From Mustelus asterias (Eukaryota), in contig NW_027590224.1 in NCBI RefSeq assembly GCF_964213995.1, positions 248,001 through 312,000 on the forward strand: 64,000 nt of DNA. Reading direction: 5' to 3'. Positions within the stretch are counted from its first letter, which is position 1. Every line of letters begins with the position of its first letter. The notes beneath the pieces are model-generated. The model was given only the letters and a program-made list of their open reading frames with translations. It did not search any database and was not told where the DNA came from. Positions 26,056 through 41,335 of the stretch are shown here, piece after piece. Position numbers and translations under genes: made by a program.

Positions 26056-26164
26056 ATGGCACAAGCTTGTGGCTTGTGCTACCAAATAAACCTGTTGGAC
26101 CTTAACCTGGTGTTGTGAGACTTCTTACAGTCCTTACCCAGTCCAACGCCGGCATCGCCACCTC
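26056..26164 (+). mobile_element. Penelope pLTR 3' fragment inside the integrase
   Basis: pLTR end sequence; flanking duplication TTCTGGATG duplicates the HPE codons. Confidence 0.85.
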
Positions 26165-26519
26165 ATTCTGGATGGTACGCAGTTGATTTAAATTGTTTGA
26201 CTCCTAAGCTATCTATAACCTCCTTGAATATCTTTGATGTAAAATTAGATCCTTGATCTGATTGTATTTCTGTGGGGAATCCATACCTGGTAAAAAATTG
26301 AAGTAACTCTTTTACAATCCTTTCAGCTGTAAGATTGCACATTGGAATGGTCTCTGGAAACCTAGTAGACACATCCATTACAGTCAAAAAATATTGATTC
26401 CCACTTTTTGCTTTAGGGAGGGGTCCTACGCAATCAATTGAGACCCTTGTAAAAAGTTCCTCAAATGCTGGAATGGATATTAAGGGTGCTGGTTTTATCA
26501 CTCCTTGAGGTTTGCCTTT

Positions 26520-33985: not shown

Positions 33986-34236
33986 TAAGAGTTTTAACAA
34001 CACCCAGGTTAAAGTCCAACAGGTTTATTTGGTAGCAATTGCCATTAGCTTTCGGAGCGCTGCTCCTTCGTCAGATGGAGTGGATGTCCACTCAGATATC
34101 TACTCCATCTGACGAAGGAGCAGCGCTCCGAAAGCTAATGGCATTTGCTACCAAATAAACCTGTTGGACTTTAACCTGGTGTTGTTAAAACTCTTACTGT
34201 GTTTACCCCAGTCCAACGCCGGCATCTCCATCTCAT
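33986..34236. mobile_element. Penelope inverted pLTR pair with two intact hammerheads
   Basis: ~100-bp near-perfect inverted arms; 13-bp TSD CGATACAAGAAAG; hammerheads at 34042-34078 (-) and 34105-34141 (+). Confidence 0.9.
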
Positions 34237-35857: not shown

Positions 35858-36190
35858 CTTCCTAACCCATAGACTGCACTCAGTAAGGATCGGCAACAAC
35901 ACCTCCTCCATGATCATCCTCAACACCGGTGCCCCACAAGGCTGTGTTCTCAGCCCCCTACTATACTCCTTATAAACCCATGATGTGTGGCCAAATTCCC
36001 CTCCAACTCGATTTTCAGGTTTGTTGGTGACACCACCGTAGTGGGTCGGATCTTAAACAATGATGAGATGGGGTACAGAAAAGAGATAAAGAATCTGGTG
36101 ATCTGGTGCGATGACAATAATCTCTCCCTCAATGTCAACCAAACGAAGGGGATAATCATCAACTGCAGGAAGCGTAGTGGAGAACATGTC

Positions 36191-39100
36191 TGTGGTGAAC
36201 CACTGTAGTATTGTCTGTTTGTGTGATATGTCTGGACACGCCCCTGCTGCCTCAATCCGGGGCTCCGCCCTCCTCGGGGTATAAAGGCGACTACTTTCCG
36301 CCCCTTTTGCCTCAGTTCGGATTAGCTATCGGTTCGGGTGTGCTCCAATTCTTTCGTAAATAAAAACCTGTTATTTCGCAACAACGAGTCTTGGTATAAT
36401 CAATGGGGCATCAATTTTATTTACGAAAGTTTTTGGGATGGAGCAACTCTTAAAACCTGATAAACTGGACTTGGGCCCCCAGGCTGTTGGGGCCTCAAAC
36501 TGTTTTGATCACTGGCTGCGCTGCTTCGAGACCTTCATCACCTCCTCCTCCGCCATCGTCGTAACCGACATCGACAAACTACACGTTCTCCACGCCCACA
36601 TCAGCGCTCACGTCTTCGCGATAATCCGAGACAGTTTGGACCAGGGAGCGGCGTGGGCTTGGAGGGCCGAAGGGCCTGTTCCTGTGCTGTATTGTTCTTT
36701 GTTCTTGACACGGAAACCTACCAGGAGGCAATCGATCTCCTAAAGGGCCAGTACAACCGGCAGCCGAATGAGGTCGACGCCAGACATCTGCTGGCCACTC
36801 GCAGACAGCAGCCCGGGAAATCGACTGAACAATTCCTGCGCGAACTGCGTGCAGCCTGCAGCTGCAAGGCCATTTCAGCCGCCAAAAACGCCGACGACCT
36901 GATCAGAGATGCCTTTGTCGCGGGCATCAGGTCGACCTATATCCGGCAGTGTCTACTGGAACAAGGTGGGTTGGACCTGAAGAAAACTGTGGCGCTTGCC
37001 GGCTCGCTGGAGGTGGCTTTTCGGAATCTCGAGGCCTACACCCCCGACCACGAGGGTGCATCGTGGACACCGCGACCATCTCTGTACCCGGGAGGGCTGC
37101 AAACCTATGCCACGCCCCGTCCCGACACCAAACTGACCACTGCGGCAGTCTCCGGAGGCCCGAGGTGCTACTTTCGCAGCCTGGAGAAGCACCCACGACG
37201 ACGCTGCCCGGCGAAAGACGCGATCTGCTCCGGCTGTGGTCAGAAGGGCCATTACTTGAAAGTCTGCAGGGCAAAATCAGCCTCCAGGCCCAGCAGCGCC
37301 GTGTGCGATCCGCGGGAGCCACCATCTTGGACGCCATCAGCCATGTGCGACCCACGGGGGCCGCCATCTTGGATGCCACCAGCCACGTGCAACCCACAGG
37401 GACCGCCGTCTTGGATGATGTCAGCCACGTGCGAGCCACACGGGCCGCCATTTTGGGAACCGTCCACCGCGTGCGGCTCCTCGCCTAATCCAACGGTGGC
37501 CTGGGTCGCGTTGGACCAGTCCAAGCCTCACCAACTCGCCTGGTCTATGATGGACATCAAGGTAAACGGTCACACTACAAACTGTTAATTTGACAGTGGG
37601 AGTACGGAGAGTTTTATCCACCCTAACACGGTGAATCGCTACGCACTGCCAGTACTGCCAATGCAGCAATCAATCTCCATGGCTTCGACGTCCCAGTCGG
37701 TGAATGTCCTCGGCTACTGTGTGGCAACTCTGTATGGGGCACGGTGTACGAGAAGTGCAGGCTCCTCGTGCTGCCACAGCTCTGCGCTGCCGTTCTACTG
37801 GGGCTAGATTTCATGTGTCACCTTGGGAGCGTCACCATGGTATATAATGGGCCTTTTCCCCCAATCTCCGTCCGCAATCCGCAGCTACTAGACCAGCCAC
37901 CGCACACCACCTGTGGTCTCTCGACCCTTAAAGTCGCCTCCCCCTCGCTCTTTGAACACCTCACCCCCGACTGCAAGCCCATTGCCTCCAAAAGCAGACG
38001 GTACAGCGCTGGAGATAGAGTGTTTATTAAGTCCGAGGTGCGACGCCTCCTGGGGGAGGGGATCATTGAGGCCAGTACCAGCCTCTGGAGAGCCCAAGTG
38101 GTGGTTGTTAAGACTGGGGAGAAACATCGCATGGTCATCGACTACAGTCAGAACATTAACCGATATACGCAGCTGGACGCGTATCCCCTTCCCCGCATCT
38201 CTGACATGGTCAACCAGATTGCACAATATCGGGTGTTCTCCACCATTGACTTGAAGTCTGCATACCACCAGCTCCCTATCCGCCCAGAAGACCGCCAATA
38301 CACTGCCTTCGAGGCGGATGGCCGTCTCTATCACTTCCTTCGGGTCCCTTTTGGCGTCACCAACGGTTTTCCAGCATGAGATGGACCGAATGATGGACCA
38401 GAATGGGCTGTGGGCCACCTTCCCGTACCTGGATAACGTCACCATCTGCGGCCATGATCAGCAGGACCACGACGCCAACCTCCAAAAATTCCTCCACACT
38501 GCGGCACTCCTTAACCTGACCGATAATAAGGAGAAGTGCATATTCCGCATGCGCCGCCTCGCCATCCTTGGTTGTGTTGTGGAGAACGGGGTCATCGGCC
38601 CCGATTCCGACCGCATGCGTCCCCTCCTGGAACTTCCCCTCCCCACCACCCTCAAGGCATTGAGGAGATGCCTGGGCTTCTTCTCGTATTACGCCCAGTG
38701 GGTCCCCAATTATGCAGACAAAGCCCATCTGCTCATCAAATCCACCTCTTTTCCCCTGGTGGTGGAGGCTCGGCTGGCCTTTGACTGCGTCAAAGCGGAT
38801 ATCGCGAAGGCCACGATGCACGCTGTAGACGAGTCCATCCCATTCCAGGTGGAGAGCGATGCGTCTGACTTTGCCCTAGCCGCCACTCTTAACCAGGCGG
38901 GCAGACCCGTGGCCTTCTTCTCACGCACCCTTCAAGGCCCTGAAATTCGACACTCCTCTGTCAAAAAAGAGGCACAAGCCATCGTGGAGGCTGTACGGCA
39001 CTGGCGCCACTACTTAGCTGGCAAACAGTTCACTCTGCTCACAGACCAACGGTCCGTTGCCTTTATGTTCAGTAACCTGCAGTGGGGCAAAATCAAGAAT

Positions 39101-40628
39101 GATAAGATTGTGAGGTGGAGGACCGAGCTCTCCACCTACAATTACGACATTTTATACCAGCCTGGGAAGCTCAATGAGCCCCGGACGCCCTGTCCCGGAG
39201 GACCTGTGCCAGCGCGAACCTAGACCGATTACAGACTCTCCACGACGACCTCTGCCACCCGAGGGGTGACCAGGTTCTTCCACTTCATCAAGACCCGGAA
39301 CCTGCCCTATTCCATCGGGGAAGTCAGGTCTGTAACTAGGCACTGCCAAGTCTGCACGGAGTGCAAGCCGCACTTCTATCGGCCACCTCATCAAAGCCAC
39401 CCGCCCTTTCAAACGCCTAAGCGTTGACTTCAAAGGCCCCCTCCCCTCCTCTGACCGCAACATATACTTCCTCAATGTCAGCGATGAGTATTCGCGGGTC
39501 TCCTTCGCTATTCCCTGCCCTGATATGACCTCGGCCACGGTCGTCAGGGCCCTGCACAGCCTCTTCACCCTGTTCGGTTTCCCCAGCTATATTCATAGCG
39601 ACTGGGGTTCCTCTTTTATGAGTGACGAGCTGTGCCAGTACCTGCACTCCAAAGGTATAGCCTCGAGTAGGACCACCAGCTACAACCCCAGGGGGGACGG
39701 ACAGGTGGAGAGGGAGAACGCGACTGTCTGGAAGGCCGTTTTATTCGCTCTCCGGTCTAAGGGTCTTCCAGTCTCCCACTGGCAAGAGGTCCTCCCTGAT
39801 GCGTTACACTCAATTAGGTCACTACTGTGCACGGCTACCAACGCCATCCCTCATGAACGAATGTTTGTTTTCCCCAGGAAGTCCTCCTCTGGGACCTCAC
39901 TGCTGTCTTGGCTGACGTTCCCAGGCCCTGTCCTGCTCTGGAAGCACGTGCGGACCCATAAATCGGACCCCCTGGTTGAAATGGTCCAACTCCTCCACGC
40001 CAAACCCCAATACACCTATGTGGCGTATCACGACGGGCGGGAGGACGCGGTCTCCATTCGCGACCTGGCACCCACAGGTACTACGTCCCACGGCCCCTCA
40101 CCCCCAGCTCCCAACGTTGCCCATGATGCACCAGGGTCGCAGCACGCTCATCTAGCCCCCATGTACGGCACGCCTGAGCCCCAGGAGCAGCCTCCACACA
40201 CCCGGCAGTCTGAAGGTGCTACGGACGGCTTCACCGATTACGGACTGGCGTCTGACTCACCACCACGGCCTCCTGAACCGGCACCACGACCGACACTGCG
40301 GCGGTCGCAGCGGCAGATCAAGCCCCCGGAGAGACTGAACTTGTAACTCTGTGACTGTCGTTCCACCACCTCGCCCCCACCGAACTCTTTTTTTGAACAG
40401 GGGGTGAATGTGGTGAACCTCTGTAGTATTGTCTGTTGTGTGATATGTCTGGACACACATCTGCTGCCTCAATCCGGGACTCCGCCCTTCTCTGGGTATA
40501 AAGGCGACTGCTCTCCGCCAGTTTTGCCTCAGTTCGGATTAGCTATCGGTTCGGGTGTGCTCCAATTCTTTCGTAAATAAAAGCCTATTATTTCACAACA
40601 ACAAGTCTGTATAATCAATGGTGCATCA
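36191..40628 (+). mobile_element. Full-length, decayed Ty3/Gypsy LTR retrotransposon
   Basis: LTRs 36191-36413 and 40409-40628 (TG..CA, roughly 90% identical), 5-bp TSD ATGTC, PPT GAACAGGGGGTGAA; gag from 36438 with two zinc knuckles, protease FDSG, RT, RNase H (ESDASD), integrase; several frameshifts and stops. Confidence 0.96.
36634..36706 (+). mobile_element. 73-bp CR1 3' tail inserted in gag
   Basis: GGGCCGAAGGGCCTGTTCCTGTGCTGTATTGTTCTTTGTTCTT with TSD GACA. Confidence 0.85.
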
Positions 40629-41335
40629 ATGTCCCTGTCCCTGTTAACAGAAACAAAGTGGAAATGGTTGAGAGCTTCAAGTCTTTAGGTGTTCAGATCA
40701 CCAACAACCTGTCCTGCTCCCCCCATGCTGAATTATATAGTTAGGAAACTATAGTTTAAGAAACTGAGCTATAGTTAAGAAAGTCCACCAACGCCTCTAC
40801 TTTCTCAGAAGATTAAGGAAATTTGGCATGTCAGCTATGACCCTCACCAACATTTACTGATGCACCATAGAAAGCATTCTTTCTGGTTGTATCACAGCTT
40901 GGTATGGCTTGTGTCCAAGACCGCAAGAAACTACAAAAAGGTTGTGAACGAAGCCCAGGCATCACTCAAACCAGCCTCCCACCCATTGACGCTGTCTACA
41001 CTTCCCATTGCCTCGGAAAAGCAGCAGCATAATTAAGGACTCCATGCACCCCGGACATTCTCTCTTCCACCTTCTTCTGTTGGGAAAAAGATACAAAAGT
41101 CTGAGGTCACGTACCAACCGACTCAAGAACAGCTGCTTCCCTGCTGCCATCAGACTTTTGAATGGACCTACCTTGCATTAAGCTGATCTTTCTCTGCCCC
41201 CCAGCTATGACTGTAACACGACTTTCTGCACTCCTTTCCTTCCCTATGAACGGTATGCTTTGTATGTATAGCGTGCAAGAAACAATACTTTTCACTGTAT
41301 ACTAATACATGTGACAATAACAAACCAAATCAGAT

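Follow-up and report, generated by a model that had tools for sequence, protein, structure and literature searches.

A Gypsy clade without chromodomain whose primer-binding position matches its own LTR and which is likely primed by its own RNA

Introduction

The position that a primer-binding site (PBS) occupies defines the start of minus-strand synthesis in retrotransposons. A Gypsy element of Mustelus asterias carries at this position the complement of its own LTR. This raises the question of what primes its reverse transcription. The element lies in a stretch of 64,000 nucleotides (contig NW_027590224.1, positions 248,001 to 312,000), here called the window, to which all coordinates refer. 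An initial annotation had suggested a variant self-priming fold that would also mask the 5' poly(A) signal and the gag start codon.

Self-priming has been described for Tf1, Tf2, Tj1 and Tf1/sushi chromoviruses. The relevant passages name the mRNA's 5' end as primer, embedded in a pretzel of three duplexes (PMC4600332; bioRxiv 10.1101/2022.12.06.519325). In Tf1, the RNA folds back, and a cut by the RT/RNase H 3' of the paired stretch yields the primer, according to passages in PMC7175516 and PMC5341516. Self-priming has also been predicted in plants for the Tcn1 clade (Gypsy) and the TAR lineage (copia), the latter including Houba and Osr-1. The criterion given in the passages on these groups is an LTR complement of at least 10 nt, located 0-5 nt after the LTR (PMC6317226).

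Structure of the element

A full-length, decayed Gypsy element occupies 36191-40628 on the plus strand, flanked on both sides by the 5-bp target site duplication ATGTC (36186-36190 and 40629-40633). The hallmarks of Ty3/Gypsy elements are present: two TG...CA LTRs, the target duplication and a polypurine tract (40395-40408). The 5' LTR (36191-36413, 223 bp) is 91.5% identical to the 3' LTR (40409-40628, 220 bp). The gag-pol region (36438-40346) begins with the gag ATG at 36438-36440 and continues, as is usual for Gypsy, with protease, then RT, RNase H and integrase; the nearest solved relative is Ty3. Frameshifts, stops and an insertion interrupt gag-pol, and the window copy is dead. A short host repeat of unassigned strand is inserted in gag (36658-36707), and similar pieces occur at four other places in the window. 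The end of gag holds about four tandem copies of a 42-nt repeat (37298-37465), which encode a repeated peptide.

The 5' LTR contains a candidate TATA box, TATAAA (36280-36285, present in both LTRs), and an initiator-like TCAGTT (36312-36317) as candidate transcription start. The predicted self-primer is an arm at 36351-36365, with the poly(A) signal AATAAA (36359-36364) inside its 3' end. An RCCT motif follows directly 3' of the arm (36366-36369), reading ACCT in the 5' LTR and GCCT in the 3' LTR. The predicted cut falls at this junction, between 36365 and 36366. The PBS position (36415-36429) is the exact 15-nt reverse complement of the arm and of the arm copy in the 3' LTR (40568-40582). It starts one base (A36414) past the terminal CA of the LTR, and all coordinates initially assigned to this complement hold.

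The two LTRs differ at 19 positions, none of them within the 61 bases 36305-36365. The chance of such a clean stretch is about 0.01 before correction for its post hoc choice, and it could reflect chance or gene conversion. The unchanged arm in the 3' LTR, to which the initial annotation had drawn attention, is no evidence: at the measured substitution rate of 7.2%, its chance is about 0.33.

The complement itself was compared with randomized controls. The longest one starting 0-3 nt past the LTR has 15 nt, and 20,000 shuffles of the LTR reached a maximum of 10. Among 20,000 random window positions, 39 reached at least 15 nt, a set that may include real inverted repeats and the site itself. The latter count is the point in favour of a chance match, or of a local inversion confined to the window copy.

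RNA folding of R, U5 and leader, by which the proposed pairing was to be checked, predicted the 15-nt helix with a pairing probability of 0.95-0.97 at six choices of RNA start. The fold of the whole region 36300-36460 was no better than that of shuffles (z -0.30). Evidence is thus provided by the exact helix, not by overall stability.

The proposed masking of the start codon fared less well. TGCTCCA (36341-36347) does complement 36439-36445 over the gag start, as the initial annotation had stated, but a 7-bp helix was equalled or exceeded in 4.8% of shuffles, which is not above chance. An extended start-codon helix in the window copy reached a p of about 0.05-0.1. Across the clade, the mean longest stem at the start codon was 6.2 versus 5.9 in shuffles, and 15% of the shuffle sets equalled it; masking is not a clade-wide feature. 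The fold also shows an extensive helix between the initiator-like site and gag, which was rejected as a conserved feature. Helices as good arose in 5.4% and 7.9% of shuffles and in 41 of 387 other pieces of the interior, and the mean z across 24 families was -0.5.

Related elements

Out of the 3,896 candidates that a protein search yielded, 638 passed; the analysis covered the best 120 of these 638. Among the matches listed, the closest named proteins are of ray and shark origin (Hypanus, Narcine, Mobula, Scyliorhinus), with up to 83% identity, followed by proteins of corals, an anemone, a porcelain crab and Trichuris with 56-60%. In a quick tree of 49 rows, which comprised clade members and two outgroups only, the window element, the four cartilaginous-fish proteins and one further protein form a group of six rows with good support. 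Both results point to a cartilaginous fish as host. A chromodomain was found neither in eight full-length relatives at E up to 1 nor among the domains of the best 120 of the 638 proteins.

The RT of the window element (38300-39175) and its relatives have the active-site motif YxDN, in the window YLDN; Ty3 has YLDD. Among the best 120 of the 638 proteins, the last position of the motif was N in 103 and D in 11, and the motif was missing in six. Four loci (L004, L006, L012 and L014) combine LTRs of 99-100% identity with open frames of 1213-1238 aa and YxDN. Judged by these young, open-frame copies, the YxDN RT appears active. A literature search on the YxDN motif of RTs revealed nothing relevant, and a protein atlas matched with generic RT clusters only. 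No literature link to a clade name was obtained via YLDN, Cigr-1, MolGy1 or Selgy; Selgy was rejected as name, being a plant clade. The strings YLDN and PFGVTNG are absent from the searched supplement files of PMC6238403 and PMC8556966.

Nucleotide loci were collected by a scan with an alignment of 40 proteins, yielding 80 loci from metagenome contigs (the best of 477 confirmed) and nine from genome contigs. A second alignment scan added four loci. A search of viral contigs found no relatives. Within the first 89 loci, a gag start was recognized in 54 and more than 90 nt of upstream sequence in 52. Together with the window, these form a set of 53 loci in 29 families, in which many multi-copy loci derive from one assembly.

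Complementarity across the clade

In a blind test, a perfect complement of 11-19 nt to the own LTR was detected in 44 of the 53 loci, versus 13 of 812 cross-family pairs. Counted by best member, 24 of 29 families reached at least 11 nt, or 23 of 28 related families without the window. The recurrence in these 23 families argues against a chance match or an inversion in the window copy alone; this explanation is already refuted. Five families stayed below 11 nt. In L017, the arm lies at the other contig end with a match of 12 nt. The complements in L025 and L078 have 9 and 10 nt, and that in L045 about 9 nt by eye, while none to its own LTR was found in L048. The same arrangement, with 11-14 nt, is present in four loci beyond the first set (L017, L052, L068 and L090). 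L090, from a sister branch of the fish elements, has no RCCT.

An anchored set of 26 families was obtained by omission of the families L017, L045 and L048 and of a rearranged copy, L009. In later analyses of this set, L012 stands in for its sibling L010, which has a deletion in the site. The blindly found arm starts exactly one base past a CA in 23 of the 26 families. Both LTR ends were available for 24 loci, among which L039 is mis-anchored and L014 and L015 represent one insertion. The 3' copy ends in the same CA; 22 of the loci also qualified by divergence, and 18 have a 5-bp target duplication. An own-5'-LTR complement of at least 10 nt thus begins 0-5 nt past the LTR, the arrangement from which self-priming was predicted in plants.

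The 26 families have 26 different 14-mer sites. None starts with TGG, in agreement with the initial annotation, which had found no tRNA-type PBS in the window copy and named a normal one in other copies as the counter-evidence. Watson-Crick pairs occur in 352 of 364 cells (columns 1-14 of the 26 families). The arms were located by complementarity, so that this fixed-register count is partly circular; the fair control is the blind cross-family test above. Exchange of sites and arms between families gives an average of 8.6 pairs of 14, and none of 650 combinations reaches 14. Each of the columns 5-14 holds two to four different Watson-Crick pair types. The co-variation of both segments, for which the initial annotation had called, is hence observed: pairing is kept while the sites differ. 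In column 15, pairing is down to 15 of 26 families, and it has reached background level by about the eighteenth. The loop between arm and site comprises 20-69 nt, and the site precedes the estimated gag start by 12-49 nt. The self-pairing PBS is a real, conserved, co-varying and clade-wide feature.

Priming by a host tRNA fragment or another small RNA, with the LTR match as by-product, would have a parallel in the half-tRNA primers of some copia lineages, known from a passage in PMC6317226. The sites vary between families in step with their own LTR, which makes this origin very improbable, and Rfam gave no match for 36150-36500 at E up to 5, a weak test for 15 nt. A single host RNA could not fit 26 different sites, each of which complements the LTR of its own family. 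The simplest reading is the route of Tf1.

Changes in individual copies

In L012, one base is altered in both LTRs, with a corresponding alteration in the site; its siblings lack this. Such a matched change is what copying of the site from the primer would produce. In L007, a change is present in both LTRs and not in the site, and in L010, L011 and L065 changes are confined to the site. Matching of arm and site is, according to these mismatches, not automatic in every copy. Contigs of four runs on 36150-36640 revealed a sister arm departing after 36354 (X1) and sites that miss one base at 36425 (X9, X1). As pieces not linked on one contig, they give a mere hint of a shorter helix in a sister family.

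Junction, poly(A) signal and transcription start

The arm ends with AAA, each position being conserved in 24 of 26 families. The bases 3' of it are R in 26, C in 24, C in 23 and T in 21 families. In 19 of 26 families, the junction R opens a stem of at least 4 bp, versus a mean of 10.3 and a maximum of 17 in 200 shuffle sets. The AAA/RCCT junction and the stem starting there are candidates for a cut signal.

The arm is closed by A[A/T]TAAA in 19 of the 26 families (AATAAA in 10, ATTAAA in nine), and seven have no hexamer. A second A[A/T]TAAA within 150 nt upstream or in U5 is found in three families only. The arm contains the hexamer, and the helix would consequently hide it in the 5' LTR alone. 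It is thus plausible that the 5' poly(A) signal is masked, with the seven families lacking a hexamer as exceptions.

The helix might even serve solely to hide the 5' poly(A) signal, with another primer for reverse transcription; the frequent hexamer at the arm end, usually the sole one nearby, would suit this. Three observations render it distinctly improbable: the site lies one base past the LTR end, a place defined by priming itself; pairing outlives the loss of the hexamer in L033 (15 pairs) and L064; and the other primer could not be a single host RNA, given 26 different sites.

In the window family, TATAAA at 36280 and TCAGTT at 36312 would leave about 40 nt of RNA ahead of the arm. TATA-like words within 150 nt occur in four of 26 families, each at a different distance, and the placement of the 40-nt type is restricted to the window family. 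Neither a TATA box nor an initiator at a fixed distance was found across the 26 families. A transcript that begins with the arm, as in Tf1, and one that begins about 40 nt ahead of it have about even odds. Pyrimidine tracts ending in YAG, which resemble splice acceptors, are located at varying distances upstream of the arm in nine of 26 families (among them L044, L072, L078 and L035) and are probably just T-rich U3.

The primer could also derive from the R copy at the 3' end of the same or a partner RNA, cut or trimmed at AAA/RCC and circularizing the RNA. The same arm is present in the 3' LTR, and pairing extends over at least 14 nt though the most conserved bases are located at -11 to -9. 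Nor does a promoter motif lie at a fixed distance upstream, so that the arm is not necessarily a 5' end. This origin is nevertheless unlikely: no conserved poly(A) hexamer upstream of the arm would end the RNA there, the 5' arm is close to the site, at a distance of 21-70 nt, with a predicted pairing probability of 0.95, and a cut in the 3' R would presumably remove the strand-transfer acceptor on that RNA.

Proposed mechanism

The elements form a Gypsy clade without chromodomain, in which the site is the complement of 13-19 nt of the own LTR. Priming by the element's own RNA, with a cut at AAA/RCC, is the likely mechanism. The arm in the 5' R would fold back onto the site one base after the LTR. 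The element's RT/RNase H would then, as in Tf1, cleave the bond that follows the arm on its 3' side, and extension of the new 3' end would run through U5 and the remainder of R. The approximately 20 bases that separate the cut from the poly(A) site could carry the first strand transfer. The same helix would hide AAUAAA of the 5' LTR; the 3' LTR, which has no downstream partner, would be polyadenylated. The variant self-priming fold of the initial annotation is retained with respect to the missing tRNA site and the conserved, co-varying pairing with the own LTR, and abandoned with respect to start-codon masking as a general feature.

A more specific version is tentative and has somewhat less than an even chance. 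It assumes a separate origin in animal Gypsy elements, a primer that contains the poly(A) signal and lies inside the transcript, one helix which both silences AAUAAA and primes after the cut at AAA/RCC, and an RT with YxDN.

Comparison with known systems

The clade resembles Tf1 and Tf2 of Schizosaccharomyces pombe, Tj1 of S. japonicus, Tosmo1-3 and Tcry1, which the passages on these elements present as Gypsy-type with a PBS complementary to the own LTR instead of a tRNA. In the same passages, a cut 3' of the paired stretch makes the primer of the Tf1 group, as it would here. Several characters differ. Unlike Tf1/sushi elements, the present clade has no chromodomain. The two additional duplexes of the Tf1-type pretzel, in which LTR sequence following the primer pairs to either side of the site, were not above shuffles in a coarse test (means of the longest stem 4.27 versus 4.16 and 5.73 versus 5.60); a local stem at RCC takes their place. 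The helix has 13-19 nt versus 11 in the Tf1 group, the poly(A) hexamer closes the arm, and the RT mostly has YxDN. The primer of Tf1 is located at the RNA 5' end, whereas transcription may start upstream of the arm in the present clade. The clade likely works like Tf1 and is, with neither chromodomain nor pretzel, not filed as Tf1/sushi.

For Tcn1 and TAR, self-priming was predicted from the same kind of evidence. These groups differ in their plant and fungal hosts, Tcn1 being a chromovirus clade and TAR belonging to copia, and the passages on them in PMC6317226 say nothing of a poly(A) signal within the primer.

Cigr-1, MolGy, Mag and CsRN1 are metazoan Gypsy elements outside the chromoviruses. 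By description, the host range and compact size of the present clade would suit one of these. Cigr-1, with about 4.2 kb, short LTRs and one ORF, is a candidate. The main texts of PMC6238403 and PMC8556966 do not contain the word PBS. GyRex2, which is CsRN1-like, has a tRNA-Trp site according to a passage in PMC3587641, unlike the present clade. No description of self-priming in a non-chromovirus animal Gypsy clade was found in the literature accessible in part or whole, with subscription journals, Repbase, GyDB and bioRxiv supplements outside the search; a prior note is possible. The passages of PMC2864245 and PMC3601003 contain none.

The proposed mechanism is a variant of self-priming, which itself is already known. 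With hosts among corals, a crustacean, a nematode and cartilaginous fishes, a clade without chromodomain would add one more, probably independent case. It bears on the question, raised in a passage of PMC3601003, whether hairpin priming is ancestral or has arisen repeatedly. If the proposal is true, the clade is beyond a host control via tRNA supply or tRNA fragments and is overlooked by tools that require a tRNA site. The proposal would also explain in a simple way how the 5' copy of a short LTR escapes polyadenylation. The intact young relatives make the predicted cut site directly testable.

Additional observations

In L028 and L056, about 16 nt of the site plus leader recur in direct orientation in U3, upstream of the arm. 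The animal retrotransposon loci L081-L093 reside in contigs filed as bacterial genomes, probably due to host contamination. The window further contains a separate integrase fragment on the minus strand (26157-26453) with 33% identity to the clade of the element, and an 85-nt inverted repeat (34004-34179), 96% complementary with a spacing of 6 nt.
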